A stretch of 59,768 bases of DNA, counting the filler. It is 4 parts of 4 records of this genome, joined end to end, with 100 filler letters (N's around TTAATTAATTAA, not from the genome) between each part and the next. Parts side by side here need not be neighbours in the genome. Positions count along the whole stretch, not along the records: positions 1 to 25,853 come from SRR20825019_2167; 3 more parts are not named here. One strand, written 5' to 3'. The stretch's first letter is position 1. Each line of letters starts with the position of its first letter. Shown piece after piece: positions 6,038 through 48,203 of the stretch. The translations under genes were made by a program, and so were the position numbers. The notes under the pieces are model-generated. The model saw only the letters and a program-made list of their open reading frames with translations. It was not told where the DNA came from and searched no databases.

Positions 6038-8964
6038 ATGTCTACGGACAAAGAGAACATGGTCCCCGTCATGACCCCGGGCAACCATGGCCAAGTCAAG
6101 GCTGTTGATGGGACTCCAAACACACGTGGTGGTCTTCACTTTGGTGGGAGTTATCATGCTAACCATGTTCAGGCTACACCTTTGGGTCTCCATAAGTCCA
6201 AAGCCATTCTGGAAACCCCCGCGGCGAAAACACCCAGGTGCAGCGGAACACCTCTCCTGACGCCTGGATCAACGGGAAAACACACACTTGCCCTGCGTAG
6301 GGGAGTCAAGCAAATTCCTGACAGCGGAGACGACCCCCACCGCACACAGTTGATCGAAAAGGTGCACTCAGTAGTGGAGCCTGCCCAGATCCTGCGCGCG
6401 TGGAAAGAGCTCACAGACTACGACTCCAAGAAGATTGCTGGCGCCAATGCCGACTGTGAGGCCACCAAAAAGGGTCAAAGGGCTCTGCTCCGATTGTATG
6501 ACATGGCAACTAAGAGTGTTGTCAAGACCGAGAACCTGCTGCAGAACCCTGACTATGTACACCTCTGGGCGGATTATGGGTTGGCCCAGTCGAGAGTCTG
6601 GAAGTACAATAGCTCCATGGAACAAGATGACTGCTGCGAAGAAGCAAAGACCACATTCAAATACATGAAAAATGAAGGAATCGGCTCAAGGATAGCGAAA
6701 CTTTACACCAGTTGGGCCGAGTTTGAACTCGAGAATGGATGTGAGGAAGCGGCAAGGAAGGTGCTGCAGAACGGACTGAAAAAGAAAGCGCAACCCTCTG
6801 TAGATATTGAAAAGGCAATCGGCGCTCTTGATAGCAAGAAAGATGACGGAAAATCCGCATTGACAGACTCGCAAGATATCAACAATGGCGCGGTTGTATC
6901 GGCAGACGACGCTGCGGACCGCAAGGAAAGGCGGGTTTGTTTTAGAAGCCCCGACACTGCCGAAGGATGTGCGGGAACTACTGTGGAGTCTCATGGAGAC
7001 AACGCTCACACGTCGGCGTCAAGTGCGACCACAAGGTCAATCGCACTCACGTGCACAAGCACCCTGGGCAGCACGGTGCACGGGTCCACCACTGGTCACA
7101 CCTCTTTGACTCACTCTAGTGGTCTCACGTGCACGTCCAGTCTCACCCTGACCGACAAGGACAACGACACGGCGCATACGTCACATACATCACACACTGC
7201 CGTGGGAAAAGCTCCGTCTACCGAAAAAAAGAACCGCGATGTTGAGCTCCTCTTGGAAGGCACCGAACCGACTAACACTAATTTTACGGAACTGACCAAA
7301 TCACTGAAGGAAGACCTTAAGAAAATGGTGATTCCCGAGTTTCGGAAACCCGCCAGCAAGCGAAATGAAAGTGCAACTAAGATACCAGGCGGCGGGAAGG
7401 CGCAGTCAGGTGGGAAGACACCGGGAAAAGCAAAATTATTCAAACCACTTGGCCTCTCAGGCGGCGCTGCCCGAGTCATTCCAAAGGCAGCACCGGTGAC
7501 TGAAGTCGTTGAAGAGCCAAAGAAGCCTGAAGAGAAACCTCATGCTGTTGAAGATCATGAAGAGACCAAAGAAGGAACCGGGGAAGTGCCTCTGGCGCCC
7601 ATTGATGAAGAGAATGCAGACGAGATGTCTACTGGTGACAGCGGAAGCCGCGCGGAAGGAAATTCTGCCCAGAAAGTGAAACGGGCATCTGAGTCATCAT
7701 CGGTGCCTCCAGCCCCGAAGGAAGCCTTCACCTCCACCAAGACGACTGGGCATACTCAGGTTACTACAACTTCCGGTGTAAACGGGCCCACCCTGACGAG
7801 TCAAGGGGTCCCTTCGTCCAATCAAGTCACATCTAGTGGTTCAGGTGACAAAAGCAAGGTAATGATCGTAAATGGGAAGAAGTATGCAATCCTCGAGGTC
7901 ATCGGCAAAGGTGGAAGCAGCAAGGTGTACAAGGTGATGGGCAACAACCGGAAGATATATGCCCTTAAGAAGGTGAAGCTTGAAGGAGTCGACTCCGAAG
8001 TAGTAGATGGTTTCATTAATGAAATCGAGCTCCTTAAGAAGCTGCAAGGCAGTGAGTATGTCGTCCAGTTGATTGATGCCGAGGTGAACCTCGAGGCAAA
8101 GTACATTTTCATGGTGATGGAGTTTGGTGACACCGACCTGGCCCGCATGCTCCAACGCCAGCAGGGAAAGCCCTTCAACGAAAACTACATCAAGCTTTAT
8201 TGGCAACAGATGCTTGAGGCCGTACATGCTGCGCACGAGCACCGAATCATCCACGCAGACCTGAAACCCGCCAACTTCCTCTGTGTTGAAGGAAGACTGA
8301 AGCTTATTGACTTTGGTATTGCCAAGGCCATGAAGAATGACACGACGAACGTGATTCGCGAAAACCAGGTAAGCTCAGATTGCCATGTGTTTCTATTTAT
8401 AGAAATTGATTTTTATTCCAGGTGGGCACCTTGAACTACATGTCGCCCGAGGCGTTGCTGGGTGAGGAGAGTGGAGACGGCAATGGAAAGCATATGCAGA
8501 AACTCGGACGGGCTAGTGATGTGTGGGCCCTTGGATGCATTCTGTATCAAATGGTGTATGGGCGCACCCCATTTGCCCACCTCAACCTCCTATCGCGCCT
8601 GCGTGTGCTCACATCTCCTAACTTTGAGGTTCCTTTTCCTAAGCCTGGCGAAGCAAGCGTTGATCTTCCAGCTGATTCGCCAATCATCGATGTCATTCGC
8701 AAGTGTCTGATGCAGAATTCGAAGGCCCGCCCCTCCATTCCTGAGTTGTTGGATTCGCCCTTCGTGAAGGGTGGCAGCACCCATGCAAAAGGCCCTGCCA
8801 TCACGAAGGAGCTGTTGTCTTCTCTTATCACTCAGCTGTCTTCTGTGTCTGGAGGACAAGGACTTGGTGGAACCAATGCAAATAATCTCACGACAGCGAT
8901 CCTTCAACAGATCGAGAACGGTCAGAATATCGACATATCATCCCTCACAAAATCGGCGATGTAA
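6038..8964 (+). CDS. MPS1: Spindle-checkpoint kinase Mps1/TTK with N-terminal TPR domain; one intron 8369-8421
   Basis: IGKGGSSKVY, HADLKPANFL, LKLIDFGIAKAM..DTTNVIRENQ|VGTLNYMSPE and DVWALGCILYQMVYGRTPF are Mps1-diagnostic. Removing the 53-nt GT-AG intron joins the two ORFs in frame. Confidence 0.93.
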
Positions 8965-9059: not shown

Positions 9060-10608
9060 TCAAAGAATTGGGGGAATCACATCATTCTTGAGCATATGAT
9101 ACTCCCGCGCATACATCAATTGCCTGTGGCCAGTGGGGTTAGACGTCACTATCCCCTACACACCGGAACGACTCACATTACTGGGAAACCGAAGTAAAAG
9201 AACACCCAAAATGTGATATTCTCAAACTCAGTCATGTACTTGGGAACAAGTCGTCGAACGACAAACTTCATCAAGTAAATGGCGGGGATCTGCACAGGCC
9301 GTCAGACACCTACATCTCAACAGGAAACCATCAAGCACATACCTGCATCATCATCATACTGAGCATCCACAAACGAGCGATACGGAAAACAATTGCAAAG
9401 ACATACTCGTGCAGAACTGCGGAGAACAGGAATGTGGAGAATGTCGCGATAAACTTTCCGTGAGGAGATGTGGCGTCCAGATTCTCCACGTAGATGTGCC
9501 GCAACAGCCACTTGTGCACAGGCTTGTTCCACTTTCGCGAAAATTCATCTAAATTCTCCGAGTTCCACCAGTCTTGGTAGAAATCACGGTCGGCAAACCG
9601 CGTGAGTTCGGCAATGCAATTGAGCATCCCCTCAAATATAGTGTAAAATATGGTAAACCACCCAATCATTGCAGGCACAGCCAACCTAAGAATACACTCG
9701 AGCAAAGGCTTCGTAGCCACGTCAGCGTAGATGGGCGAGATGAACTTCTGAACAAGATGATACAGCACAGTCAACATCACAAAGGTTTCGCCGGCCTTGT
9801 AGAAAAAGAAAGGCCAACGGATGTTATCGTTCCGGGGATACGTGGTTTCGTAGACAAGTGTTGGAGCAACCAGATAGTACGAAAAATTTCCCAGGGTCAC
9901 GTTGTTTGGATAGACATCCGTGCCGCCCTTTCTCGGCGATAAATCCCCCGAGTCCCGGGCCTCGCGCCTGAGCTGCTGGTTGATAACAAAGTAGGAGTGC
10001 ATCTTCATGGACAAAACTATCTGCTCCAAGACAATCGCAGTGCTCGTCACTTCTCCGATATCAGTCCACCCATCCGATCAATAGCCCAACCAGCAACCTA
10101 CCGATAGCCATCTCCCTCTCAATCACAATCTTGGTGGGGACCGTAAACATGGCCGCTTGGCAAATCTGATGAGAGAATCAGAGGAGGGATTGTTTACCGT
10201 CAAATAGAAGTACCTGGAAAAGCATCGCTGATAGTGAGCTGCTAATGAAAAAATGGGCATGAAGATATGTCAGCACGAAGGAAGAGAAGGTCAGCGTGAC
10301 CATTCCCAGAAAGAGGAACAGCGTATTCCAGTGGTCGTTTGAAACGAAATGAAACAACCCCAGATCAATGATATAACCCGAGCGCCGGAACTCCAGAGTC
10401 ATGAGAGTGACGATCCACACCACACAACCTGCAGCGCCCTCAGCGTCCAATACGAGAGGCTAGGCTCAAATGGTAGCCTACCTGCCGTCACAAGGTTATA
10501 CATGCCCCGATAGTGCTTGGCATCCAGCTCTCGTGGTTTTGTAAGCAGTGATTCTCGCGGCTTGTGCAATACAGGCATTGCCCTGGGAGGGCTCCCAGGA
10601 GTTGGCAT
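9060..10608 (-). CDS. MBOAT acyltransferase, DGAT1/sterol O-acyltransferase type; multi-exon
   Basis: HKPRESLL...HYRGMYNL, YLVAPTLVYETTYPR, RFADRDFYQDWWNS, WNKPVHKWLLRHIY and catalytic SAVLHEY; ends ...YHMLKNDVIPPIL*. Confidence 0.88.
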
Positions 10609-11406: not shown

Positions 11407-13236
11407 ATGGCCGAGTATATGACCATAAAGGTATCTGACCCCGAGAAACATGGTGACGGGGCAAAGGCATATACCACGTATCAGATTACCGTGAAGGTGA
11501 GTGCCCTATATACTGTGGACGAGCTTCGCTAAGCTTACAACAGACCAACGCTCGTGAATACAACGATGTCGAGTCCATCGTTCGCCGCCGCTTCAGTGAT
11601 TTCCAGTGGTTGCATGGAGCACTGGAGTCTCAGGCGCTCGGTGTTTGGGTGCCGCCCATGCCTGAGAAGAAAGCGATGGGTCGATTTGCCGACGATTTTA
11701 TCAACCAGCGCATGCGTGGCCTCAATCAGGTAAGCTTCTGCCAGTTTTGCTGTCAAACTGTTCTCACCTCGCCTACGCGTAGTTCTGCCAGCGTATTGCG
11801 GCCCATCCTGTGCTCCGGAAGATGGATTGCGTTGTTTCATTCTTCACCGCAAAGCACTGGGAGTTGAAGAGTCAGAAGTCAGGTGACGATGGAGGTTTCC
11901 AGAAGCTGATCAAGAAGGTTACCCTGGAGACAGACGCTGTTGTGCTGAGCACCTCGGCACACAAGGCGCGTATCCAGGAAATGGATCCTGACCACAAGGA
12001 GTTCGACACATTGAAGGCCTACATTGGGGAGTTTGAAAAGAGCGTGTCGTCCATGAACAAGGCTATGGCGAACCTTGTGAAGAAGCAGCACGAGATGTCT
12101 GATGACTATAACTCGATGGCTCAGTCGCTCCTTCACATTGCTCAAGGAGAAACTGACCTGACAGAATCCCTAGATTGTAGGTGTCTGTGCTTTTGTTGAG
12201 TGCGTGCCACTAAACCGCCTGTAGCGTTTGGCCAGGTGTGCCAAGAAATAGCATCTTTGTTCACGCAGCAATCTCAACGAGACGACGAGAACACGGTTGA
12301 GACCCTCAAGGAGTATATTGGGTATGCCCAGTCTGCACAGGTGTGTGTTTTTGGGCGTATATCAGGGAGGAAGCATTGACAACCGGGATTCAACAGCGAT
12401 GTGTCAAGGTGCGCGACCAGGTTTTGGGAAAATACGAGGAGGCGTCCAGCCGCCTCACCAAGTACACTGCCCAGCTGGAGAAGGAGGTGGATGAAAAGGA
12501 GAAGAGGGACAAAGAAATCGAGGAAGATCCTACAAAGAAGAGTATGTGGAAAAGATTTGTCTCTTGTTGATATGGAATTCTATCTGACCCTCGCCTTCAG
12601 AGAAGGGTGGATGGTTCTCTAAGGATCCGGACGCTAAGCTCGAGAAGACCAAGAAGAATCATGCTGAGGCCGAGAATGATGTTGAGAATACCCAGAAGTA
12701 CTTTGAGGAGACAACAGAAACCATGCAGGCCGAAGTGCAGAGGTTCCACAACAACAAGCTGCGTGATTTCCAGAACATGATGTTGACGTACGTGAGAAGC
12801 CAGATGTCGTTTAACCAGAAGGTGGGTTTGGGGTGTTTGTTCTTGAGTAGCCCTCCGCTGATGTTCGGTACAGTGCAAGGAACAGTGGGAGAACCTGCTG
12901 CCGACGATTCACTGTCTGGACGAGAAGGAAACTGCATCTCCTGGCTACGGTCGCATCAAGGCAAAGTCGACGGTTAGCCGTAAGGGCAGTGACATCCCTG
13001 TCGAGGAGGACGCAACGCTGACCATGAAGAGTTCAAGCAAGTCCCGGCCCCTCTCCAACAGTAAGTTCGGCGATGAAGCAGCATTTGGCCAGAAGAGGCC
13101 CTCTGCAAGCTCACAGGCGGACGACGAAATCTTCGCTCCTGCTGCCATCAGCAAGTCCATGAACGAGGAGATTGCCGAGGCGGAGGAGGATGACTCGGCA
13201 ATGATGACCGCGTCCAAGGATGAGCTCACTCTGTGA
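11407..13236 (+). CDS. PX-BAR sorting nexin (Vps5/SNX1/2-like); 7 exons
   Basis: KVSDPEKHGDG..AYTTY, VRRRFSDFQWL, PPMPEKK...F.DDFINQRMRGL (PX domain), followed by a helical BAR region ending EVQRFH..KLRDFQ..M...QWE. Confidence 0.88.
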
Positions 13237-15405: not shown

Positions 15406-16721
15406 ATTAGCAAACTTCTGAGTATATCACGACTAGGCGCACACCATCTCCTGAGCACTGTGAGTGTGTTGCTTTGGTGCAGTGTGTGTGATAGATATAT
15501 ATATGATGCAAAGAAATGAATCTCTACTCACGGAGTGTGGGCTGCTTTCGCACTATCGGAACGCTTGCTTGCAGGTTAAAACGACTGCCAAGGAGAGGGT
15601 GTGGTCACCAGCAGGTCTCTCCTATGGGCGTGCTCTGGAAGGCAGTGGCAGCAACAATTCTGACTGAGTCTGACCACACGATGGCGCAACGGCCCCAGCC
15701 ACCATATGCCTCGCGGTCTTGGCCGTGCATGCACGGGAGACCACACACAACACCCCATTCCGTTCCTCCACTGAAGCCCCTGGCCGGGCTTGCGGCCGGG
15801 CCGGCTGGAGCGCGAGCCCGCTGTCTCGGGGCCCCTTCCGTCCGACTCGGTGGGCTCGGCCCTCGGGCGGGCGCCCGCCGCACCGGCTCGGGGACCTGTG
15901 CCTGCCCCCGCCGACGACACCAATGGCTGAGGATCGCGAGTCCGGGTAGCCAGTGAGTAGCCAACACCATGATGGGCGCCCGGCAGCCGCCGAGGCGCGC
16001 CTACTACCCGGCCGGCCCGGCCGGCGGCCTCGCGCATCACGGTGTGCGCTTCTGGCGGTTACCCATCACGTGGCCCACCCTCAAGTCATTTCTGGAGCTA
16101 TCCTCGACCAAATCGCGATTGTCCTTCACCAAAGGAGAGCGCTCAGGTACAGTACGGGGAGGCGCCGATGGGGACCGGCCGAGCGAGATGAGGGCCGGGG
16201 CACCGGCCGATGAGTCTGCGAGCAGTGCAGCGGCCCTCGGCTCAGCTCGCCCCTCGCCACGACGGCGACTCCGAGGGCGCGCGGGGCCCCGCGGCGCTGC
16301 TCCCGGCCTGGCTCGCAGTCAGTAACCACCCCGGTTGGTCGCCGGGCCCGGGCGGACCGGGAGAATGATGAATCGGGCTGCTGGGCCACCGTGACGTCTC
16401 CATCGTCAGTGAGCCTCCCCAGGTCCGCGGCGGCCGCGTCCCTCCGTGCGGCCGCCAGCGCGCGCTGCTGGGGCCAACGCAATATCAGGCTACCAGGCCA
16501 CACTGCCAAATGCTTCACGACATCTCAACCCACTCAGTAGCCCGGCCTAGTTGGCGGCCGGCGGTCCTCTGCTCATCCATGACGGCAACGATACAGCGCT
16601 ATGAGCGTATTCTTTCGGCGAACACCCAGAAACTGACTCGCCACCCCCTTAGTTGAACACCTTTATATGCTACCGATGGGGAGGAGACGGTGTGGAGCAG
16701 GGCCCGCCGGACGGGACAGCC

Positions 16722-19700
16722 ATGGCAGCTTCGACCGGAAACCATGCTGGCGAGTATCGGTGCTTGCAGTCGTTGCGCGCTGTATATGCGCGGAACCTGA
16801 AGCCCCCTGGGCAGGAGTTGCTCAACCCTTTCTTCAGTATTCACTCTCCCGACGACCAGCTAGTATATACTAGCGAGGTGTCCTTCCAGACCCTCAATCC
16901 AACGTGGCTTAATCTTAGTGCGGGTCGGTTTGCCAAGGGCGCATGGGTAGATACGCCGCGCTTTTCCGTTAAGGTGTCAAGCAGGAACATACCACTTGGA
17001 GGTACCAGTTTCCAGGACCAAGTGCTGGTGGAGGACAACATTCACGCCCTTGATCTCGTACCACTTGGAAGCAGTCAGCTCACTGTCCTCACCACTACTC
17101 CTCCGAATGCGTTGATATTCGAGTTCCAGGACGGCTTGTATGCGAGTGTTGAGGTTGCTGTCGCAATTGATCAGGGCGCATGTTTGGACGCTGGGCCGGC
17201 CGCAGGCCCCGCGACCCGTGTTGAGCTGACCGATAGAATCAAGAGCTTGTACAAGCTAGAGGAGATGCAGAAGAAGCTGGCGGACATGCGGGAAGAGACT
17301 GGACGCTGCAGAAAGGACCTCAGTGACAAGCTGGTCGCTCGGGCCGAGCTTTTGTCAAAGCAAAGGCAGCACGAGATCCAGCTTGGCCGTGTGTGCAGGG
17401 CAAAGGAAGTGTTGGAAAAGGTAAAGAGGGAGCGGGAACAGCAAACAGCGGGCCTCCAGACGCTGTGGTCTGCCATGCGTCCACGCAGCACGCGGTTGGT
17501 GGAAAACCTGGCACGCCTTAAGCATCTGAAGGCGGTGACGGAGGTCAACAAGAAGAAGCTAGAGGAGGAAAAAGAGAGGAGGAAACGGGTGTCTTTCGCA
17601 TTGCATGCCAGGCAGTGGCAGCTCATCAGCGAATTGGCCGCGGTTTACCCTATCGAGGTTCCCTCGGACGGCAAAGTGATGCGGATCGTGGGATTGCCGC
17701 TGCCTAATGCCGACTTTAGTGGGATCGATGACGAGGTTGCCCAGGCGGCACTGGGGCATGTTTGTCACCTTGTCTCGGTACTTGCACGGTACCTAAATGT
17801 GCGCCTAAGGTATCCAATCACGGCTATGGGGAGTCGCTCGGTGATTCGAGACGATTTCTCTCCATATCAACAGCCTGAATTCGCGCTTTATCATCGCACG
17901 ACATCTCCGCAGCGCTTTGAGTACGCCCTTTTCCTTTTAAGTAAGAATGTGGAGCACTTGTCCTATTCCATAGGCCTGCCCCTGCAGAGCATTAAGGATA
18001 TTCTCCCTAATGTGCGCAATATCTTTGAGTCTGAGAGCATATCATGGTGTTGCGCGTTCGAGGTGCCTACCCTTTCATTCGCCGCGGCCTCCGGAAATGT
18101 GAAGCTTGTCCAGAAGATCATTGAAAGTAGGAACCGTGGTCTATCTTTTGAGAACCTTATCGATGCGGCCGGCAACACTCCATTGCACTACGCTGTGGCG
18201 TACGGACAGGTTGTGTGTGTCAAGACCCTCATCCAGCGTAAGGTTGTAGACGTGAGCGCCCGCAACTATTCCATGATGACCGCCCTTGATATTGCAAGAA
18301 GATTGCAGAATGTCCATGATGTCTCTGACAGCTTCGCCATCCGTAGTGAGCTTCAATCTGTCCAGAAGACAACTGCTGCCAAACTCAATAGCAGACTGGC
18401 TTCAACATCCCCGATACCGAGCCCCGTCAAAACAACGCCAAAACTCTCACCTCTGACCATTAGGGGCTCCCCCCCGCCACTGAGTATGCAGACCCCCCGT
18501 GTTGCGCCGGCGGAGTCTTCGGAGGATGATGCCGGAGCCACAGGACCCGAAGCAACGGCGGGACCTCGATCGAAGTTTGGATGGGAGATCAACAGAGATG
18601 ATGTTCAGGACCTGGGCCTGAAGATCGGCGAGACGCGATACTGGAAGCTATTCAAAGTTGTGTGGAACTGCCGCCTTTGTATCATGAGAGTGCCCCAAAG
18701 GGAGAACTTTGAGGACATGAAGATGCAGGCACAGATGCTGGCGTCCGTGCGTGACGAGCATGTAGTGGAGTTCTTGGGCGCGTCCCTGGAGCCCGGCAGG
18801 ATGTGCATTATCACAGATTACATGCCTTACACCCTTGCGGACCTCCTTTCGGCCAATGTGACCGAGCCATTGAGGCCCGAAACTCTGATGCAGATTGGAA
18901 AGGATATTGCCGCGGGCATGTGCGCCCTTTTGTCCGCCCCGAAGAAGCCGTTGCTGCATGGCCGCCTCAAGCCTTCGAACCTATTGGTGAGTCATGCGGG
19001 GCGTATCAAGATTGCCGATTATGCACAGCTGTGGATTCTCAAGGATGAAGAGTGTGCAGATGAGATCTTCAGCCATAGTAACATGCGTTATGCCGCCCCT
19101 GAACTTCTTGGTGCGCGCCTTTATACCCAAAAGATGGATGTGTTCTCGTTTGGTACCTTGATGTGGGAATTGTGTGCTGTAGGACGTGACAGTGTGACGT
19201 TGGACAGCACCAAGATTCACCCAGCATCTTACGGAATGTCAGTCATGGTTGGGCGGCGGATTGCTGGGCACATGAGCGAAGCAGGTTTTCGGGTGACGGA
19301 GAAGATGCCAGTGGGAATTCCCCACGAACTCATTGGCCTGATTAAGTCATGCTGGCTCACCGACCCCACCAAGCGCCCCTCCTTTTTTGAAATCCAGGAT
19401 GTGCTTGGATTTATCAGCACAAGCACGAAGCGCGTGGGTGTGCCGGCCCGGGGTCAGTTCTGGTCTGACCATGTTGAGACGGATTGCCATAGGGCAGTTG
19501 TCACCCTCATGTTCCAATCAGCCTCTGCTGCGCCGACCCTGCACGGGCACTTCCCCTTCCTGAAGACAGTCGGTCCATTCCTTGTAAGCATTGTCGATGG
19601 ATTGACAGACACCGAATGCAAGCTTGTCAGCGTGCAAGCTAACCGCAAGTTGATGGACTACTTTGGCACGCAGGTTGATGTGGACTTACCTGCCGCAGCT

Positions 19701-21059
19701 GCCTTTAAGATTTACAATTGCGCAGTGGCCAAGGATGTGCGTTTGAAGTCCCAAGACATCATGGCGGTGGGGGTGGAGGGATGGACCACCATCGGCATTG
19801 TTCCTGCCCCACCTGCCCGGACAGCTGCCTCTGACAACCAGCAAGGAATGGGGGTGGCCGCGCCTACACAGCGCAAGTCTGGAGGAAGCAAGACTAGGGC
19901 AGTGGCATTCACGCCTGAGGGTTCGTCCCCAGCCCCTGTAAACCTTAGTAGCACTGAGATTCTCTTTGCCAGTAGTCGCCAGAGTGATTCCACTTCTCGT
20001 CTTAGTGGAATTTCTAATGCGAGCTCTAATAGTTTGGCAAGCTCGCACACTGCGGCGTCAGGAGCTTCTGGCAAAGACGTGGACGCGCTGTTGCAGACAA
20101 AAATGACGGAGGATGGATCCGGAGCATGGACCCCCAAGAGCGACACTGGGATGATTGAGACCGCCCTGGATGTGATCGAAGCCGCCGCTCCCCGCGAAGA
20201 TTCAACGCATGTCGTTCAGGAGACTGTCGAAGAGCCCGAGCCCTCCGTGCCATGCCTGGAGGAGAGCATGCCATCTGAACCTGTGGCTGACGACCGGAGG
20301 ACGATGTCCTTTGATCGAATTAGCCCCCCACCATCAGTACGTACCAGCCCTGAGGTCACGGATGAAGCGACAAATGGTGGTCCTGGGCCTGCTAAACAGG
20401 ATAATTGGATGAATGACATCACGCCAGCCCCCACAGTGGAATCAAATGGGATGGAGAACGGGGCCACCGCCGAGCCGTCAGGGGCGGAGGCGGCGGCGGC
20501 CCCAAATGATGAAGGTGTCGACGACGGAATGTTCGTGCAGAAGATTAAGCCGAGTTTCTTCAAGAAACGGATCCGCCCTCGCGGCCAATCCGGGCAGGAC
20601 GAGCCGGTGCCCTCGTCATTCATGCCGACGCAGTCAAGTCTTGCCCGATCGCGTAGCAAGAGCCCCCCCGGTAGAAATCGCACTAAGGTAAGAGAGAATG
20701 GTTCTGTCTGGGTCGGCACTGCTTGTACTAATTCGACTCGCTTACAGTCACCACCTCCTAACCGCGCGCCATTCAGGCCTGGAGGCGTGGCGCCGCCACC
20801 TAAGAATGCTTCTGCGCGCACACCAGGGAGGAGCAGTCCGGAGCGGGCGCAGCGGGGAATGCGGTCCGCAGCCGTGGGAGCGGATCCGGCTGTACAGGAG
20901 GGAATTCGGCCATCTAGTCTCCGAGCACGCAGCCCGCCCAAGGGTATGTCGGCCAGAGCTGCTTCACCTCCCAAGGGGGAGTCCACCGGGGATGGGACAT
21001 CTAGGCGGGGCAGTGTGAAGGATATGGCAAGGATGTGGGAGAAGAGGCAGTCACAGTAG
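16722..21059 (+). CDS. UVRAG/Vps38-like protein (C2 + coiled coil + Atg14/BARA-type domain) fused to ankyrin repeats and a TKL-like pseudokinase
   Basis: C2: VYTSEV...TLNPTW. UVRAG: QLISELAAVYPI, ALGHVCHLV..LARYL.V.LRYP, RFEYALFLLSKNVEHL. Ankyrin: GNTPLHYAV..GQV.CVKTL, MTALDIA. Kinase fold: HGRLKPSNLLV, KIADY, RYAAPE, DVFSFG..MWE, CW..DP..RPSF. Probable in-frame intron at 20688-20747. Confidence 0.85.
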   Translation: MAASTGNHAGEYRCLQSLRAVYARNLKPPGQELLNPFFSIHSPDDQLVYTSEVSFQTLNPTWLNLSAGRFAKGAWVDTPRFSVKVSSRNIPLGGTSFQDQVLVEDNIHALDLVPLGSSQLTVLTTTPPNALIFEFQDGLYASVEVAVAIDQGACLDAGPAAGPATRVELTDRIKSLYKLEEMQKKLADMREETGRCRKDLSDKLVARAELLSKQRQHEIQLGRVCRAKEVLEKVKREREQQTAGLQTLWSAMRPRSTRLVENLARLKHLKAVTEVNKKKLEEEKERRKRVSFALHARQWQLISELAAVYPIEVPSDGKVMRIVGLPLPNADFSGIDDEVAQAALGHVCHLVSVLARYLNVRLRYPITAMGSRSVIRDDFSPYQQPEFALYHRTTSPQRFEYALFLLSKNVEHLSYSIGLPLQSIKDILPNVRNIFESESISWCCAFEVPTLSFAAASGNVKLVQKIIESRNRGLSFENLIDAAGNTPLHYAVAYGQVVCVKTLIQRKVVDVSARNYSMMTALDIARRLQNVHDVSDSFAIRSELQSVQKTTAAKLNSRLASTSPIPSPVKTTPKLSPLTIRGSPPPLSMQTPRVAPAESSEDDAGATGPEATAGPRSKFGWEINRDDVQDLGLKIGETRYWKLFKVVWNCRLCIMRVPQRENFEDMKMQAQMLASVRDEHVVEFLGASLEPGRMCIITDYMPYTLADLLSANVTEPLRPETLMQIGKDIAAGMCALLSAPKKPLLHGRLKPSNLLVSHAGRIKIADYAQLWILKDEECADEIFSHSNMRYAAPELLGARLYTQKMDVFSFGTLMWELCAVGRDSVTLDSTKIHPASYGMSVMVGRRIAGHMSEAGFRVTEKMPVGIPHELIGLIKSCWLTDPTKRPSFFEIQDVLGFISTSTKRVGVPARGQFWSDHVETDCHRAVVTLMFQSASAAPTLHGHFPFLKTVGPFLVSIVDGLTDTECKLVSVQANRKLMDYFGTQVDVDLPAAAAFKIYNCAVAKDVRLKSQDIMAVGVEGWTTIGIVPAPPARTAASDNQQGMGVAAPTQRKSGGSKTRAVAFTPEGSSPAPVNLSSTEILFASSRQSDSTSRLSGISNASSNSLASSHTAASGASGKDVDALLQTKMTEDGSGAWTPKSDTGMIETALDVIEAAAPREDSTHVVQETVEEPEPSVPCLEESMPSEPVADDRRTMSFDRISPPPSVRTSPEVTDEATNGGPGPAKQDNWMNDITPAPTVESNGMENGATAEPSGAEAAAAPNDEGVDDGMFVQKIKPSFFKKRIRPRGQSGQDEPVPSSFMPTQSSLARSRSKSPPGRNRTKVRENGSVWVGTACTNSTRLQSPPPNRAPFRPGGVAPPPKNASARTPGRSSPERAQRGMRSAAVGADPAVQEGIRPSSLRARSPPKGMSARAASPPKGESTGDGTSRRGSVKDMARMWEKRQSQ

Positions 21060-21110
21060 TGTTCAGTGTATTCATTTTGCATCCCTCCCCATGATCCCGG
21101 CGCTGTGTCC

Positions 21111-21957
21111 TTACAGGCTCTTGTGCTTCTGGCGGGTGAGTCACGAGGACCCAAGAGTGCCATAGACTCACCTTGTATGTCAACTTCTCGAGGTTGTTGA
21201 TTTCCTCTTGAGAGGTGAAGATGGTGTGTCGAATATACTCTGCCACCAAGTAAAACAGAGCGTTCTTGAGCCATGTCCACAGCACCAGAACATCCCAATA
21301 GCCCCCATATGCCCACCTGGCCACACTGCGTGAGCCACACACTATCACCGCAAGTCGACATGGGCACTCACAAAAACGTAAAGAACATAACCGTCCAAAA
21401 TGCTGTCACTGCTCCTGTCAGGAGATTGCACAGACGCCGGTTCCTCGCGCCTCCCTTCATTAGGTATTGTCCTGGTGCAAAATTCAGGTGGCAGCTAATA
21501 TCAAAAAGACACCTTACCCGTATAATAAAAGCTACCGGCCGCCAGGAGCTCCAGGCTCACTACGACGTGTATGTTCAACATGTTCTAGATATCTCTCAGT
21601 TCACGCCCGGCACAAACGGAAGGCAACATACCCTAAAATAGATCATGTAGCTTGTCCACGGATACACTTCCAAATAGACCGCGTGACCAACACACCACAT
21701 CGACAGGAACACACTGATGCCAAGTATCACTCGCTACAGTGAGTTAGTAACTCTAGGAACAGAGTGACTATTGCAAACGCGCACACCTTCCAATACATAT
21801 TGAACTCCTCGTCGTCACGGCGTAAGGTCTCAATAAGCTCCTCCTGGTCTACAGGCTACTTAGCACGTGGATGATGGTGACGGGGAGTAAAACTACCTTT
21901 CTCGTCCATTATCTGAATCTTATCCTGAACTGGGATGCCGTTTTCCTCTCCATCCAT
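21111..21957 (-). CDS. Small conserved-looking multi-pass membrane protein of unknown function; about 6 exons
   Basis: Spliced model MDGEENG...IMDEK|DQEELIETLRRDD...YWK|RVILGISVFL...EEINNLEKLTYK|HKSL*; hydrophobic middle; canonical short introns. Confidence 0.6.
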
Positions 21958-22725: not shown

Positions 22726-24415
22726 ATGGACCAGTCCGAAGACACGCCAGCAGAGCCGTTGGAGGTTCCTCAGTCACCGGCAGGCACAGGTCAGGGCGCG
22801 CAAAGGAACTGGATATGATACTGACCATGCTTTCTCACCAGACGGCAACCATTCGGACGATGAGGAGGTTGGTGACATTTCAGGAGGTGGTATCGGCTGG
22901 AACTAATAACAGGGGATCATTTTCAGGTGGATCCAAGGATCTATGCCAGCTATCTGATTCAACAGGTGGAAGATGCCCGGGAACAGGATATGCCGGCACG
23001 GAGCATCTTATCCCAGCTGGGCATGGAAGTGGCTGAGGAGTTTGATGACCTGGAACTCGAAGACCAGTGGGCTTTTGTCAAGCAGGTGTTGGGCCAGATT
23101 GTAAGAGAGATTTTGTCCCCTGCAAGAAAGAAACTGGAGGGTATCGATACGATTGACCATGCTTTGGAGCTAATACAGAAATCAAACAATATACTTGTTT
23201 TGACTGGAGCGGGCATATCTGTTTCTGGTATGTCATGGCGATGCTTCCGCCCTGCTTGATCTTGCTCACGTTCGCTAACGTTGTTCGATCAGTCGGTATT
23301 CCAGACTTCCGGAGTGAGAATGGCATATATTCCATGCTCGGAGAATATTCCCTTCCAAATCCTCAGGCCATGTTCGAGATCAATTTCTTCAAACAGAATC
23401 CAGTTCCTTTCTTCAAGTTTGCAAAGGTAACGAGATTATCACTGACGGGGCAGCTGACTAATACCCAAATTCAGGAAATCTTTCCTGGCACCAGGTACCA
23501 ACCTTCGCCGTGCCATCGCTTCATCAAGGCGATTGAGGACCAGGGCAAGCTGCTTCGCAACTATACACAGAACATCGATACACTGGAGGTTGTGGCAGGA
23601 ATTGAGAATGTCATTCAATGTCATGGCTCATTTTCGACGGCTCGTTGCACGAGCTGCAGGTGTGTGCCCGGAGACGGAGGACGGGTGTTGTGAAGGATGA
23701 TCAACTAACGATCGCGTGGCAGACGGCAGGTCCCCGGCGAGAGCATTAAGGAGGACATTATGAATCAGGTGATCCCCAAGTGCGGTGAATGCGGGGATGA
23801 GAATGGAGTGATGAAGCCGGACATTGTGTTCTTTGGTGAGGCGATGCCCACAGCATTCGACAACGCTATCAGAGAGGACCGGGAGAAGGTGGGTTGGGAC
23901 TGGCTCCGTGTCAGTGGCATGATGATACTTACGCAGGCGCAGGTGGATCTTGTGCTGGTGATGGGCAGTTCCTTAAAGGTAGCGCCCGTGGCTGACATCG
24001 TGCGGATGGTGCCAGCCGGCGTGCCTGTTGTTTTGATCAATAGAGAGGTTGTCGGGAAGCCGAACAACTTTGATGTCGAGCTCTTGGGTAACTGTGATGA
24101 TATCACACGACGTAAGCACTCGAATCGATGAATCGCGGCACTGAGTTTGACTTTCATGTAGATTTGTGGTCTGCCCTTGGCTGGCCGGGTGCAGCTAGTG
24201 GCCCTCCGGTGTGGACCGAAGTCGCAACATTCTGCCCACCGAATAGATACCTATTCGAAGGATCCATTCCTTCCGCTGCAGTGTACCGCTCCATCGTTGG
24301 CAACAATAGTGGCGAAGTCGAAAAGCCTGATGGTGGTGAGCGATGCGCCTCGCCTGATCGGCAGCCTTCGACTGCGAATGAAAATATTGGCGCGGAGACC
24401 CAGTCACAGTTGTAG
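22726..24415 (+). CDS. NAD-dependent deacetylase, class I sirtuin (SIRT1/Sir2-like); multi-exon
   Basis: VLTGAGISVS|VGIPDFRS, LLRNYTQNIDTLE, IQCHGSF, CTSC...CGEC zinc module, MKPDIVFFGE, VMGSSLKVAPV, LINRE, LLGNCD. Confidence 0.92.
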
Positions 24416-25650: not shown

Positions 25651-25853
25651 ATCCACTGAATATTCAAGAACTTATTACGCAAGTTGTCTAGCTAATCTAA
25701 TTATAACAATATATTGTGGTACGAGGCCGGACGGGCGGCGGAGAGACTTGACGGCGGGGACCTACGATTCTTTCACTGTGCCGGTCGCGCTCGGGGGGGC
25801 GGCGCGGCCTGTGAGGTGCGTAAAGGTGGGGGGCGGGGGGGGGGGGGGGGGGG

Positions 25854-25953
25854 NNNNNNNNNNNNNNNNNNNNNNNNNNNNNNNNNNNNNNNNNNNNTTA
25901 ATTAATTAANNNNNNNNNNNNNNNNNNNNNNNNNNNNNNNNNNNNNNNNNNNN
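25854..25953. other. Artificial contig linker N44-TTAATTAATTAA-N44
   Basis: Six-frame stop linker flanked by Ns; identical in all three copies. Confidence 0.98.
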
Positions 25954-28375: not shown

Positions 28376-31300
28376 CTAGTACATCATCTTGAGGTTAAGT
28401 GCACTGGCAAACTCCCGCGCCTGCTCATCAATCCATTGCTGCGGGTTGATCTTGGAAACCTTTGATCGTCCGATCTTACCTGCCTGCTTTTCTAGGGTCT
28501 TATTCGCAGGCTTAAACTTGAGGAACTTGTCGTTGGCAGGTTTCTTGAGGGTCGGCTTCGTGAATGCCTCAGTATATTCGTATGTGCGCTGCCGATCAAC
28601 AAGCCGCACAAACAGGGACATATTGTTCTTGCTCTTGAGTTTCTTCTTGTCGAAAGCAGCAGAAACAACCTCTGCACCAGAACCTTTCGTCAGTACCAAT
28701 TCACACCACTCCCTAGTCCACACTCACGTGGTATGCTGCCATATTGCAGCCCATCCTTGATGTAATCCTGGTTGACTGCGCCGTCAAAGAGAGGGATCTG
28801 ATATGATCCTGCCAAGACGTGGCCTCCATTGGAGAACACAGGCAGCACTCCCCACCCGACAGACTTCGTCGCCGCGCCTTTCGACTTGTTCTTTTTCTTC
28901 TTGCCGCCATCTTCATCGTCAGAATCATCTGAGGTTGAGTCGTTGGAGTCAGCCATCGTCCGCACGTCAAAGATCGCGCAGCTCTCGGACTTGACATTTG
29001 GATGGAACTTCCAGAATCCATCCAGCCACCTTGGAGCCTTGACATCTGCCTTCAGGTCATTCAGCTGCGTAAAGCGAACGTCGTCGGTGAGGTTCTCCTT
29101 GCTGTAGAAATTGTTTGGGGGCACAATGGAGACCACCGTCCATAGAAGCTGCTGTGGCGTGTTCTGCGCTCCATCCACAGCAATCTAAAGTAAAGACGGG
29201 TTAAAACCAATATGAGCACCACACATTCACCATTTGCATACCTGCAGTCCCGCCTCCCGATCATACTTAATCATGTAGTTGAAATTCATCCACGGTACTT
29301 CACCATCAGTTTTCATCTTGGACTTGATGAACTTCTGCAGCTGATCCTTTGGCAGGCCAGCGAGCTTGCCAGATTTGTCCATTCCAGCAAGGACATCCCG
29401 CACAGCCTGGTCACGCGTATTCTGCAGCCGAGAGTACATTTGCTTCTCCACCTGTGTAGGATGGCACCGACTTGTATCATAAATTCGGGTCTGGTATTCT
29501 GGGCGATCCACCTGTGCCTGCCGACCTTCACCGTATTTCTCTATTCGGATCAGCAGCGACGCTACACCAACGTTATCACAGGGATCGAGGGCATCAGATT
29601 TCAAGTTGATCTTTGGATTTGGCGTCCCGCGCTTAAGAGGAATCTGGAAGGCGCCCGAATTCAAGCAGTATTCGTCACTGGACGATGCTGCATCTGTCGT
29701 GCCCTCCTTGACAAAAAGATTGATGATGGCGAATCCAACGAGAACTACGCGCCGTTCATACATATCCAAGCCATTCACCTGTACCAAGGCACAGAGAGAG
29801 GGGTCGTCCAACCGCCCGCGGAAGCCCTTCCGCATCTCATACACGGGACTCATTGTGAAGTGGTCCGAATCACACTCCTTCTCCTCCATGGCTCCCACAA
29901 GGGTCCACCGTGCATCATAGATGGATACTGCACACGTGATAAAGGCAAGTTAGAGATCCTGCTCATCAAATGACTGATCTACACAGGAGTTCACTTACAC
30001 TGCACGGAGGATAGGATGATATTTTCTGGCAAGAAGCGTGCCCCATCTATATAGAAGTTAACTGACTCGTCTACGCCCAACTTATCATCCGGTGCCTCGG
30101 CCTTCTTGGAATAGAACAGCTGCAAAAAATTCAGTCAGAGCATCGATCTGCCACCACTTATGAATGTACTCACATCTTCAGGTACGCCTTCGACAGAATC
30201 AGCCGCTGCTTCGCGTGGATCAGTCTTTCTCTTCTCCCTCTCCGCCTTGATAATCGCCTCTTGTGGGTCATATATTGTGATACCAAGGCTCATTTTCTTG
30301 TTCCATGCCGAGGTCTTGCGGGGTTTCTCCGGAAGCGTGATGTAGGGACCCTTCCAAAGGGGCTTGAGTGTGGTTGTCATTGGCCGGATCTTACCCCCGT
30401 TTTCAAGACCCTTCAGCTGCGTGTAGAACCACGCTTGCATCGAGAAGTTTCCGTCCGCCTGCTCTTCCATCACTTCCACGGTAAGGTATGACGGGTCATT
30501 CGACTCTGGCTGGAACTTGAACGTTGCCTTCTCATTCCATGTCAGCACACTGATGGGACCGCGGCCAGAGGTTCCAGGCCTCGTTGTGTACTCCATCGGC
30601 GAGCCATCGGCATCAGACACAACGCCATTTCCATGGAAAAGTCGCAGTTTCAGGACCAGTGGCTTATCTGTAGTCACATCCTTCGCCTTGGATATGGACA
30701 CGCCTACGGTGTCCTGGCTCGAGCTCATTTTCTTCGGGGCTTTGTCCTTGCTCGGGGGTGCTTCCTTCTTCTTCGAGGGACCAGCATCCTCTATTGTCAT
30801 AGGTGCATTGTCTATCGGCTGCCGTGGCCGCACCGGGATCGCAGCGGCGCCACCATATTCTTGAGGTATCTTGTACTCTCCCTTAGTGTAAGTGGGGTCA
30901 ATCTTCATTTGCTGATGGCTGGCCACATTGTCAGCATGCACGAGTCGCAGAAACAGCTCCATGCTGGGCAGTCTTCCCATGTCCTCCATCTCGCCCATAG
31001 CTTTCGAGGGATTCACGGGAGGCCGGAAGGTGGGCAGTCGCCACAAACCCGACTTCAATTTTCGATCCTGAGAGAATAAGTCCAGCAATGCCCACCCCAG
31101 TGCCTGCATCTTCGGTCCTTGTGAAGGGCCCTGAGCGGGGGTAACGACCTCTTGAATCACGCATATAACCTTCAAGTTTGGAATCGCTGCAACCTTGGTG
31201 AACCTCCTCTCCTGCGACAGCACTACCAAGCTATGGGAAGGATCCTCGTCTTCCGTTTCACAAATGTCAAGCGCCTTCACCGGAGTCTTGGCCTCAGCCT

Positions 31301-33559
31301 TAAAGAAGAACTGGTACACCAGACAGCACTCTTTGACTCGCTTTGGGAGCCCAATGACGTAGTCGAAAAACAAAGCAAAGCCCGTCTGGGGCTTATAGAC
31401 TCCGTCGTTCGCCGTGATAGAGGTGACACCCCCTTCCTTCCCAAGAAGCTGCCTCACCCTCGCATCCTGCAGCCTCCTTTGCTGTTCAGTCTGCCACAAC
31501 TCATTGTCTAATTTCTTCTGCTCGAGCAACCTTTCCCTATCGAGGTCCTGCTTGAGCTTCTCCAAGCGAGATAGCTGTTTAAACTTCTGAATCTCGAACC
31601 GCATTTTGGTCATCTCTCTCACGTGTTCCATATGCAGTTGCTGTACTGCAGTCAGTGTCCCAAGATCAGCAACAAGCACACAGCATATTTCCTCACCTGA
31701 AGCTCCTCATCATCCTCGAGACCCGACATGTCAAAGTTCATCGTCTCCATGATCTCCTCTTCCTCTTCCCTCAATCGCGCCTCTTCCCGCTCTGCGTCAC
31801 CACCAAGATGCTTTTGAACAAGGTTCATAGCCTTCTTCAGCTGCTTCTGCTGCTCGTCGAACTGGTGCTTCACCTTAGTTCCACTAGCCGACTCTTCAAT
31901 TTCAGTCTGTAGTCGCTCATTATCCTCTGCAAGCTTGGCCAATATCTCATTGCTATGCTGAAGTTGTCGTTGCATCATTGCAAGAGCGGGGTTGGCATAT
32001 GGGTCCGGCGGCACCGGAGGTGGGACGGCGGCCATATTGTGCCTGGCGTCCCTCTCCAGCTCGTCCAAAGACGTAAGTATGACGGGGTCCCGACCTCCGC
32101 CACTGATATATTCCTCCCGAAGCCTCCTCACCTCCTCCAAAGAACCCGACCCCCCTCCCAAAATGGCCTGCGATGTTGAGAGACCGGCGGCAGCGTAGTG
32201 CGGCGAACCCATATACTGGCTACCTCCCATCCCTCCGTAACCCGATATCTCAGGAGAGAGTCTCTGACCTGCCCTCGGCGATGGACGCACCATGCGGTCC
32301 GACAGAGGCGGAGTCACCGCGGTCGCGGCAGTGGGCCTCTGAGACCGAATCATATCGATGTCATCTAGACTCTCACGAAGGCCGTTCTGAGACGCATTTC
32401 CCCTTTCAGGAGCAGACCGAATCATGGCGTTGCGAACAGCGTCGTTCTCGAGTTGTTCCTTGCGATACTCTACCAAACCTTCAATGTCATCCTGCATGTC
32501 TTGCCACGCTTTCCCGCTCATTTCTACCTCTTGCTCCACCTCCTGAGCAAACTCAGCGATGTCTTTGTATCCCTCTAGTGTCTTGGGCGGCAACCGCGCA
32601 CCCTCCGGCCGCATTTTCTCCATCTCCTCAAAGAAATGCCGCGCATCCCTCGCCTCCTCATCCAGCATTGCCTTGTGCTCCGCCTTCATTCGCTGCAGCT
32701 TGCTGGTTGCATCTCCATGACTATGCTTGATTCTCTGCAGTACCTGGTCCTGTGGCGTCTCGGCTCGGGTCCGGTGTCCGGTATCTTTCACAAGTTCCTC
32801 CTTCTTCTCAGTGAGGTTCTCTATATGGACACTGTATTCGGCAGCTTTCTTTCCGTGTTTGAATGCCAACATTTGCTGCTCGGAGAGTTTTGCAGCCCGC
32901 TGGAGAACACCCCCACTCTCCTCGGTACTGGCGCCTCCTCGAATCCTCCTCTCAAGAGCGTCGATCTCCCTCATTGCCTCCGCCTCCTGCTCCGCCAGCC
33001 TGGTTCTCTCAGCATCGATATCCGCAAGTTCACTCTGCTTCTGCTTCTCCAACTGCATCAGCATATTCCTGTCTACGCCATCAATCGCACCCAAAGCGCG
33101 TTCCTTGAACACACGGGCCTGCAATTCGTTCATGCGCTTCTGCTCTATTCGTTTAGACATCTCGATCAGTTCCCTCTCTAGGTCAAACTTCTTCTTTGCA
33201 AGAAACTCCTTCTTCTCTGCAATCTCGCCCTTGGCATTGTGGCTATTCACGTCCTTCTTGTTGAGAAGCCCCTTCATCAGTTTGTCGAGCTCTCTTTCCT
33301 CTCTGGCAACGTCCTCCCGTAGGAGGTTCAAGTTGGTGCCGTCCACACTGTCACCTGTAACATCTCCGCCATTCTTGAGGAACAGCATGATCTCATCCGC
33401 CCCAACCGGTATCCCGCCAGCTTTCTTCTTTGAATACCCATCAATGACCTCTGCAGCAGTATCCTTCAACTTTGTTCCGCAAAAGCGTTGCATGTGCTTC
33501 GACAAAAGGCCTTGATCTTTGAACTTCATCACGCAGTTCGGGCACTGAAAGGCCTCCAT
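28376..33559 (-). CDS. CCDC17-like protein (N-terminal zinc finger, long coiled coils, several C2-type domains); multi-exon
   Basis: FQCPNCVMKFKDQGLLSKHMQRFC zinc finger; YKPQTGFALFFDYVIGL; ciliary C2-type motifs LGWALLDLF...GLWRLP, VGFAIINLF...GAFQIPL and VGWGVLPVF...GSYQIPLF. Confidence 0.72.
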
Positions 33560-37566: not shown

Positions 37567-38111
37567 TGGTGATTTTTTTGGTGGGACGAACTCCCAATAA
37601 ACAGTTTTTCTATTGATTTCTTTAATATCAATTAATGAAAATTGTAGTCACATTCGAGGGTGGCTCCTCTATCATCCCGAATGGGATGAAGCGATAAGAC
37701 GAGGACGTCTGTGCTCTCATCATCAGCTGGGGGTGGTTCAACGTTCCCCAAACAATACCGCAGCTCCAGCGTCGAATCCCGGAGGTTGTTGGAACTCATC
37801 CCACCCGGCCACCCGGCGACGCCCATCCTCCCATCCATCAGCGCACTGCTGCCCAGCAGGGCCTCCTTCTTGCCACCAATCCACTCGTCGATCGTCAGCG
37901 GCGACCACAGCCGTGAGCAGAGCCACCAACGACCTCGTCAGCCTGCGGGCGGGGCGCACCGGTGTCATGGAGAAACGAAGGTGAGCTGTGGGTGGTCGCT
38001 ATAGTATGCTCATCCGTCATCGCATGCCTCCTTGTGCGGATCTCGAGCCTGAGCCATTATACCCTCTAACGTTTGTCGCGAAGCGGGGAGGGGGGGGGGG
38101 GGGGGGGGGGG

Positions 38112-38211
38112 NNNNNNNNNNNNNNNNNNNNNNNNNNNNNNNNNNNNNNNNNNNNTTAATTAATTAANNNNNNNNNNNNNNNNNNNNNNNNNNNNNNNNN
38201 NNNNNNNNNNN
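38112..38211. other. Artificial contig linker
   Basis: N44-TTAATTAATTAA-N44. Confidence 0.98.
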
Positions 38212-42414: not shown

Positions 42415-42522
42415 GTTCTTTGCCGGCACGCGGCGGGAGACGCCGCGCGTCAGCCGGCTTATCGCTCAGGCACAATGGGGCGAAGGCGGCGGGGGCAGTT
42501 CATTTTCAGGGAGGCGACCTGC

Positions 42523-48103: not shown

Positions 48104-48203
48104 NNNNNNNNNNNNNNNNNNNNNNNNNNNNNNNNNNNNNNNNNNNNTTAATTAATTAANNNNNNNNNNNNNNNNNNNNNNNNNNNNNNNNNNNNNNNNN
48201 NNN
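48104..48203. other. Artificial contig linker
   Basis: N44-TTAATTAATTAA-N44. Confidence 0.98.

Follow-up and report, generated by a model that had tools for sequence, protein, structure and literature searches.

Introduction

Whether a subunit of the lipid kinase complex that makes phosphatidylinositol 3-phosphate (PI3P) can carry, in one polypeptide, ankyrin repeats and a kinase domain deprived of its catalytic residues is the question raised by a gene at positions 16722..21059 (plus strand) of the DNA analyzed here, a stretch of 59,768 nucleotides referred to as the window. The subunit concerned is UVRAG/Vps38, which sets where complex II of the class III phosphatidylinositol 3-kinase (PI3KC3) makes PI3P, and whose targeting and regulation via its C-terminal region are only partly understood. 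The locus is probably one genuine eukaryotic gene for a UVRAG/Vps38-type complex II subunit which has gained ankyrin repeats, a linker, a predicted dead kinase domain derived from the tyrosine kinase-like (TKL) group and a disordered tail. An earlier reading of the letters alone, here called the preliminary description, had recognized this anatomy correctly but missed about 540 further residues, an intron in the tail and the existence of known proteins that combine ankyrin repeats with UVRAG.

One Open Reading Frame Across All Modules

Open reading frame (ORF) scanning and translation identify a single frame on the plus strand (16722..21059) that extends from an ATG to a TAG (21057-21059) through 1445 codons. 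The start codon is embedded in a Kozak-like context (GCCATGG) and the nearest in-frame upstream stop is found at 16650, 24 codons before it. That one uninterrupted ORF holds all modules, as had been proposed, is borne out; its end had been set at 19420, where the kinase domain finishes, and the frame in fact runs 1.6 kb beyond that point, adding the residues that follow the kinase. Neither an intron nor a stop separates the modules, and the only intron is found farther downstream, in the tail, its in-frame removal leaving 1425 amino acids. Contigs resembling complementary DNA (cDNA), described below, tile most of the ORF.

The 4.3 kb of the frame contain no stop codon, and an open frame of 1445 codons at ~55% GC is far beyond chance. 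A composition count gives similar values of GC and of GC at third codon positions (GC3) across the modules, and the gene is wholly contained in the first contig of the window (1-25853), 4.8 kb from the nearest contig end. Since the ORF is stop-free and a cDNA-like contig spans the junctions, one gene is by far the simplest reading.

A Complete UVRAG-type Core

In agreement with the preliminary description, a complete UVRAG/Vps38-type core makes up the N-terminal ~440 residues, with a C2 domain, a coiled coil and a BARA2 domain. In a Pfam scan of the fusion protein, in which each model was applied with its own cut-off, PF10186 (ATG14/Vps38) matched residues 178-421 with 38 bits (cut-off 33.2), and a phmmer search against all PDB sequences aligned residues 11-437 to human UVRAG 38-460 (E 2.9e-34), UVRAG being the only protein matched at E up to 0.01 (2 distinct sequences). 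An AlphaFold model of residues 1-445, built on a 17-sequence UVRAG alignment (A1) and with a mean predicted local distance difference test (pLDDT) of 83.7, comprises a beta-sandwich (residues 18-141, pLDDT ~80-90), a single long helix (172-308) and an alpha/beta domain (320-444), the last two with pLDDT >90. The top Foldseek matches of this model were chain C of human PI3KC3 complex II in the entries 9zpd (E 4e-26) and 9zpc (E 6e-23), both of which contain the UVRAG sequence according to the PDB sequence search, followed by Vps30 and Beclin BARA structures (3vp7, 4ddp) and many C2 domains; chains of complex I matched at E 3e-5 only.

Three features can thereby be placed on the plus strand. The C2-type beta-sandwich (residues 18-141) is encoded at 16773..17144; the C2 Pfam model falls short of its cut-off on the fusion protein (15.9 bits vs 22) and the assignment therefore rests on the fold, as given by AlphaFold and Foldseek, together with the alignment of this region to the N-terminal portion of human UVRAG. 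The long coiled-coil helix (residues 172-308; 17235..17645), supported by AlphaFold, PF10186 and the same alignment, is the counterpart of the coiled coils CC1/CC2 of UVRAG. The BARA2-type alpha/beta domain (residues 311-444; 17652..18053) is recognized by AlphaFold and Foldseek, together with a sub-threshold match of the APG6 BARA Pfam model, and closes the canonical core.

In both sequence and fold the core is nearer to UVRAG than to ATG14. A feature of Atg14 is its N-terminal Cys repeats; the first 60 residues of the fusion protein include 1 Cys and hence no such repeats, and the relatives of the core are named UVRAG in UniRef. The statement that UVRAG normally ends after its core domain also held: among 83 UVRAG-matching proteins, the alignments that reach the C-terminal region end at query residues ~432-441 and many of the proteins terminate 5-20 residues later. 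The first ankyrin repeat is found at residue 451, so the added part begins ~13 residues past the usual end of UVRAG.

The divergence of the core deserves consideration. The best identities to the fusion protein are 31-35% only (proteins of Clastostelium, Muranothrix, Diphylleia and unnamed protists), and in a quick version of the UVRAG tree the terminal branch of the query is long (1.18 vs a median of 0.57). Both observations would fit a neofunctionalised UVRAG paralogue acting outside complex II, with the canonical UVRAG encoded elsewhere in the genome and the core retained only to give an ankyrin-pseudokinase scaffold a means of membrane binding or dimerisation. This explanation is distinctly unlikely: all 11 invariant and 5 near-invariant columns of alignment A1 are kept in the query, the alignment to human UVRAG extends over the full length of the core, and the sister Diphylleia branch is equally long (1.2), so that branch length may reflect the lineage and not relaxed constraint. 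The pairing with Diphylleia has an SH-aLRT (Shimodaira-Hasegawa-like approximate likelihood ratio test) value of 93 and joins long branches; the placement of the query is not settled by this tree.

Ankyrin Repeats, Linker and Tail

On the reading preferred here, a complex II subunit with a gained C-terminal extension, the first added element is a short stack of about 2-3 ankyrin repeats (residues 451-528; 18072..18305, plus strand), which had been predicted and was recovered by four Pfam models: Ank_2 at 451-528, Ank at 484-515, and Ank_4 and Ank_3 also above their cut-offs. It is followed by a linker rich in Pro, Ser, Thr and Ala (residues 546-615; 18357..18566, plus strand) that contains 6 S/T-P sites, has pLDDT <50 and is modelled as unfolded.

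The portion beyond the kinase domain consists of two regions, neither of which has a Pfam match. Residues 905-1040 (19434..19841, plus strand) are moderately hydrophobic and of no assignable fold: Pfam gave no match at E up to 10, a search with residues 890-1050 as query found no homologous protein, and the model has no confident fold here. They may represent a lineage-specific domain. A BTB fold, suggested for residues 895-1045 by an Atlas feature score of 0.77, was rejected on the strength of this negative Pfam result and of the unfolded state of the model in that region. The remaining residues, 1041-1445 (19842..21056, plus strand), form a tail rich in Ser, Ala, Pro, Gly and Arg, presumably disordered judging from its composition, with 12 S/T-P sites in a motif scan, including two SPPK. 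To judge from their motifs, the S/T-P sites of linker and tail look like targets of regulatory phosphorylation.

A Predicted Pseudokinase

The kinase fold (residues 619-904; 18576..19433, plus strand), also part of the preliminary description, is supported by Pfam, by the model and by Foldseek. PF07714 (PK_Tyr_Ser-Thr) matches residues 659-894 with 114 bits (E 9.5e-33) and PF00069 with 80.7 bits; in an AlphaFold model of residues 440-1040 the kinase part has pLDDT ~90 and superposes on the c-Src kinase domain with a template modelling (TM) score of 0.84 in Foldseek. Among the best 60 of 486 PDB sequence matches and the listed Foldseek matches, the closest kinases are Src, Abl, EGFR, CTR1 and TAK1. 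The domain belongs with the TKL/tyrosine kinase (TK)-like kinases, because PF07714 fits better than PF00069 and because its nearest neighbors of known structure include CTR1 and TAK1.

Motif positions were read from a HMMER alignment to ABL2 and from a MAFFT alignment (A3) with 12 trimmed kinase relatives, which agree with each other. The degenerate motifs noted earlier occupy the expected positions: the Gly loop GxGxxG is replaced by GETRYW (residues 636-641; 18627-18644), the beta3 Lys by Arg656 within CIMR (residues 653-656; 18678-18689), HRD by HGR (residues 746-748, within 18957-18980), which puts Arg748 in the place of the catalytic Asp, and DFG by DYA (residues 766-768; 19017-19025), in which Asp766 is retained. 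To these is added the loss of the alphaC Glu (Gln669). The catalytic loop, of HRDLKxxN type, reads LHGRLKPSN and keeps Asn753; APE is also retained (residues 792-794; 19095-19103). In the aligned columns of 58 related kinases the HRD Asp is present in 51 and the beta3 Lys in 56, and none of the 58 has the substitution set of the fusion kinase (GETRYW, K to R, E to Q, HGR, DYA). Because other residues occupy the places of the Gly loop, the beta3 Lys, the alphaC Glu and the HRD Asp, the domain is predicted to be catalytically dead, as had been supposed from four replaced canonical features.

The residues that were spared (Asp766, Asn753 and APE), the confidently predicted fold and the lysines which flank the degenerate Gly loop (YWKLFK) would suit an atypical active kinase with relocated catalytic residues, as WNK has for Lys, that phosphorylates complex II or nearby membrane proteins. 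Such activity is improbable: Arg748 stands where the catalytic base should be, the Gly loop retains its first Gly only, Arg and Gln stand in for the beta3 Lys and the alphaC Glu, and the transcript contigs have Met for Lys750 of the catalytic loop, a sign that constraint on this loop may be relaxed.

Transcript Evidence and the Integrity of the Fusion

For the fusion with a predicted pseudokinase to be accepted, its junctions have to be genuine. Two public runs of one sample, X1 and X2, of unrecorded kind, carry the stretch, and their contigs were compared with the window over 16300-21400. They appear to be cDNA, as they contain three joints, bounded by GT..AG or CT..AC, at which 60, 46 and 55 nt are skipped, as well as adaptor-like loose ends. 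Contigs of X1 cover 16719-17578, 17606-19798, 19778-20578 and from 20570 onward, with a flat depth of ~6-7.5 over 16719-20578. One of them (record 3; 2193 nt) extends over 17606-19798 without gap or joint, bridging BARA2, ankyrin repeats and kinase; it has 4 mismatches to the window and is therefore not merely the same assembly. Coverage across 18000-18100, proposed as a check on the fusion, is thus unbroken and, since this contig crosses the three modules, the junction is not an assembly artefact.

The joint of 60 nt, found in contigs of both runs, defines a spliceosomal intron in the tail (20688-20747, plus strand; codons 1323-1342) with the sequence GTAAGAG...CTAAT...TTACAG. The spliced frame stays open, and the intron escapes ORF scanning because it is in frame and stop-free. 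The introns seen in this organism are very short (46, 55 and 60 nt).

Contigs and window differ at five positions of the gene: 17735 and 18983 are synonymous, 17784 gives A355T, 20338 gives V1206A and 18970, where T replaces A in both runs, turns Lys750, the catalytic-loop Lys of the HRDLK position, into Met. As a single observation in one sample, the latter suggests a fit with relaxed constraint on catalysis. A loose end of a contig at 18176 was considered as an alternative exon and discarded: its first letters encode the conserved TPLHYA motif of ankyrin repeats, and no AG comes before it. This X1 contig, more abundant than the fusion transcript, is probably the transcript of a paralogous ankyrin gene. 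Separately, a 21-nt match at 17260-17280 is part of an unrelated abundant X1 contig.

Transcript ends are not visible in the contigs, and run X2 has adaptor-like loose ends inside the ORF at 18964, 19317 and 20095, which could be taken to mean that UVRAG-only and ankyrin-kinase-only products arise separately, by polyadenylation within the gene or from an internal promoter, with the fused protein as a minor form. We regard this as very improbable, as the fragments concerned are short and have such loose ends on either side, a pattern typical of library artefacts, the depth of X1 remains flat over 16719-20578 and neither a joint nor an end occurs between 18000 and 18600. That the fusion is itself an artefact (either a chimera created in an assembly that is fragmentary and possibly amplified, or a pair of neighboring genes mistaken for one) can hardly be entertained and is already largely refuted: although the window consists of joined short contigs with poly-G and poly-A ends, one of them 100% identical to a Nitratireductor chromosome, and although the protein is missing from public collections, the gene lies inside one contig and far from its ends, 17606-19798 is contained without a break in an independent contig that differs at 4 nucleotides, two genes would require a stop codon between them and composition is homogeneous across the modules.

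Search for the Same Architecture

The one-gene fusion, once accepted, poses the question of how widespread it is. An exhaustive HMMER search with residues 1-910 against 1.84 billion representatives returned 31,926 hits at E up to 0.001, the best 150 of which were listed; together with those retained from a homologue search of near-length proteins, 160 proteins were examined. They comprise 80 with the UVRAG part only, 58 with the kinase only, 19 with ankyrin repeats only and 3 with ankyrin repeats and UVRAG, and none of these 160 proteins combines UVRAG with a kinase. This absence is informative for the searched library because domain scores add up, and a protein with both would outrank the weakest listed match (112 bits). 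The near-length search itself, also with residues 1-910, gave only kinase and ankyrin matches.

Among the proteins examined, the combination of UVRAG and kinase is thus without a counterpart, unlike that of UVRAG and ankyrin repeats. According to Pfam, 6 of the 83 UVRAG-like proteins have ankyrin repeats, always N-terminal (P0024, P0028, P0076, P0098, P0103 and P0160); P0024 is KAL6054767.1 of Balamuthia mandrillaris, called a RING-type E3 by its source. Another UVRAG-like protein, P0095, has an Mrr-type nuclease domain, and none of the 83 has a kinase domain. The quick tree neither resolves the N-terminal ankyrin proteins as close kin of the query nor settles whether ankyrin repeats were gained once or several times.

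Other searches gave concordant results. Among the rows listed by an Atlas feature search with residues 1-1040 there were only clusters of ankyrin plus kinase (0.92-0.93), none with ATG14; a search for longer proteins with alignment A1 had no match, which is weak evidence; and a metagenome scan with residues 301-910 yielded 40 pattern matches and 0 relatives. In the literature searched, mostly at the level of titles and listings, there was no natural fusion of UVRAG/Vps38 with a kinase or with ankyrin repeats, nor a description of the N-terminal ankyrin plus UVRAG architecture, and a term search of PMC13218723 gave no occurrence of 'ankyrin'. The preliminary description knew of no UVRAG-ankyrin-pseudokinase fusion, and none emerged from the proteins or the literature searched here. 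The combination of UVRAG core, ankyrin repeats, pseudokinase and tail is so far a one-off variant of a well-known protein. The databases contain no close relative of the organism.

Proposed Role

If the core still pairs with Beclin via its coiled coil and BARA2 domain, the protein would sit on the adaptor arm of the Vps34-Vps15-Beclin complex, and the ankyrin-pseudokinase module would leave BARA2 at the membrane-facing tip of that arm, at the membrane interface. There, the short ankyrin stack and the putatively dead kinase could act as a protein-binding scaffold that targets or gates PI3P synthesis and is possibly regulated by phosphorylation of the S/T-P-rich linker and tail. This role of a targeting or gating scaffold is the one we infer and favor.

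A bolder version takes the fusion as a 'Rosetta stone': in this lineage complex II would have, besides Vps15, a second kinase-like scaffold at the tip of the adaptor arm, to which a specific partner of the membrane or cytoskeleton would dock and which would gate PI3P synthesis via a phospho-regulated linker and tail. On the whole this is unlikely. If true, it would imply, together with the amoebal N-terminal ankyrin-UVRAG proteins, that the targeting of UVRAG by ankyrin repeats is recurrent and arose on more than one occasion, and other eukaryotes would be predicted to have an Ank-TKL protein that partners UVRAG without being fused to it.

Several observations weigh against the reading of the locus as a single gene for a complex II subunit with a dead-kinase scaffold. 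The assembly from which the gene comes is fragmentary, and one of its contigs is bacterial. The runs that provided the contigs are without an RNA record, 27 nt inside the coiled coil (17579-17605) are without contig coverage, and a single full-length transcript is not provable from the contigs. The model of residues 440-1040 is of low confidence in its ankyrin part, which is helical with pLDDT 50-66, and is not usable for residues 905-1040, which are unfolded with pLDDT ~30. The retained DFG Asp, catalytic-loop Asn and APE may allow residual nucleotide binding. Lastly, the exact protein is absent from a 15-billion-protein collection and no orthologue of the fusion was found in the protein and metagenome searches, so that its conservation, and with it selection for the fusion, is at most putative.

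The significance of the fusion lies in its placing a folded module of ankyrin repeats and a predicted dead kinase where mammals have a phospho-regulated disordered tail. It nominates a class of partners for UVRAG, and regulation at the membrane tip of the complex could be studied with it in a compact setting. Its value is limited in that it is so far a single gene of a poorly sampled protist, lineage-specific kinase fusions are common in protists and the function is inferred only.

Gene Neighborhood and Assembly Context

The window is made of four contigs joined end to end by linkers of 100 nt each (44 N + TTAATTAATTAA + 44 N) at 25854-25953, 38112-38211 and 48104-48203, and gene neighborhood is meaningful within each contig only. 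Contig ends include poly-G at 25840-25853 and 38096-38111 and poly-A from 25954 onward.

Within the first contig, the fusion gene is accompanied by a Bub1/Mad3-type kinase gene (6038-8961, plus strand) with an intron near 8434, a fragment of an MBOAT acyltransferase (9334-10077, minus strand), a gene with a PX domain (E 1e-13) and a weak match to the Vps5 C-terminal domain (E 5e-4), as in PI3P effectors of sorting-nexin type (11457-12196, plus strand), and a Sir2-family fragment (23157-23690, plus strand). The sorting-nexin-type gene lies ~4.5 kb upstream of the fusion gene, a closeness that is probably coincidental. At the 3' end of the fusion gene, contig joints of X1 and X2 reveal a convergent minus-strand gene (21060-21400) with introns at ~21126-21171 and 21314-21368 (CT..AC on the plus strand); it overlaps the end of the fusion gene, and transcript contigs merge there, with deeper coverage. 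The ORF piece 21004-21405 had no Pfam match.

Over its whole length, the third contig (38212-48103) matches the Nitratireductor sp. L15S-10 chromosome with 100% identity (NZ_CP120674.1:772425-782315); it encodes an acetyl-CoA acetyltransferase (thiolase; 41230-42414) paired with an acetoacetyl-CoA reductase (42475-43242), as well as a helicase-related gene (43908-46967). Horizontal transfer or insertion of bacterial DNA was ruled out, this being a separate contig between linkers; it is a co-assembled bacterial associate or contaminant. The window outside it contains eukaryotic genes with short introns, such as SDA1, split at 50662-50846. Four long ORFs of the minus strand, 55475-59308, 30138-31631, 31655-33559 and 1-1581 (1278, 498, 635 and 527 aa, respectively), had no Pfam match at E up to 0.001.

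Comparison with Known Systems

The closest known counterparts of the protein are human UVRAG and yeast Vps38 (PDB 7bl1, 9zpc, 9zpd and 5dfz), which have the same order of C2, coiled coil and BARA2 and are alignable end to end with the core. According to the available portion of PMC6358306, human UVRAG comprises C2 (53-164), CC1, CC2, BARA2 (364-464) and a tail (464-699) that is unstructured and heavily phosphorylated, its C-terminus being directly at the membrane interface, whereas Vps38 ends soon after BARA2. Instead of this phosphorylated tail (465-699 in the same source), the fusion has ankyrin repeats, pseudokinase and a ~540-residue tail, and it lacks the N-terminal proline-rich stretch of the human protein.

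The ankyrin-UVRAG proteins of amoebae and other protists also unite ankyrin repeats and a UVRAG core in one polypeptide, but their repeats are N-terminal and more numerous and they have no kinase domain. Conversely, kinases of the Ank + TKL type (Ank-kinases of green plants and algae, ANKK1/RIPK4, TNNI3K, the inactive TEX14 and ILK) have ankyrin repeats directly N-terminal of a TK/TKL-like kinase fold, but none has a UVRAG core; the fusion has 2-3 repeats only. The absence of catalytic residues is shared with TEX14 and, from general knowledge, with ILK, the classic ankyrin-pseudokinase scaffold, which binds PINCH and parvin. The layout had been called ILK-type, which is apt in that ankyrin repeats precede a pseudokinase; neither the best 60 of the 486 matches to PDB sequences nor the Foldseek matches listed for the fusion kinase include ILK, and the likeness is one of layout only.

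A kinase-fold scaffold within the same PI3KC3 complex already exists in Vps15, which is described as a pseudokinase and has a scaffold role in these complexes. Vps15 forms a subunit of its own and contains HEAT and WD40 domains, whereas the fusion joins a TKL-type, predicted dead kinase to the adaptor-arm subunit, and the two kinase folds are unrelated in position and in family.

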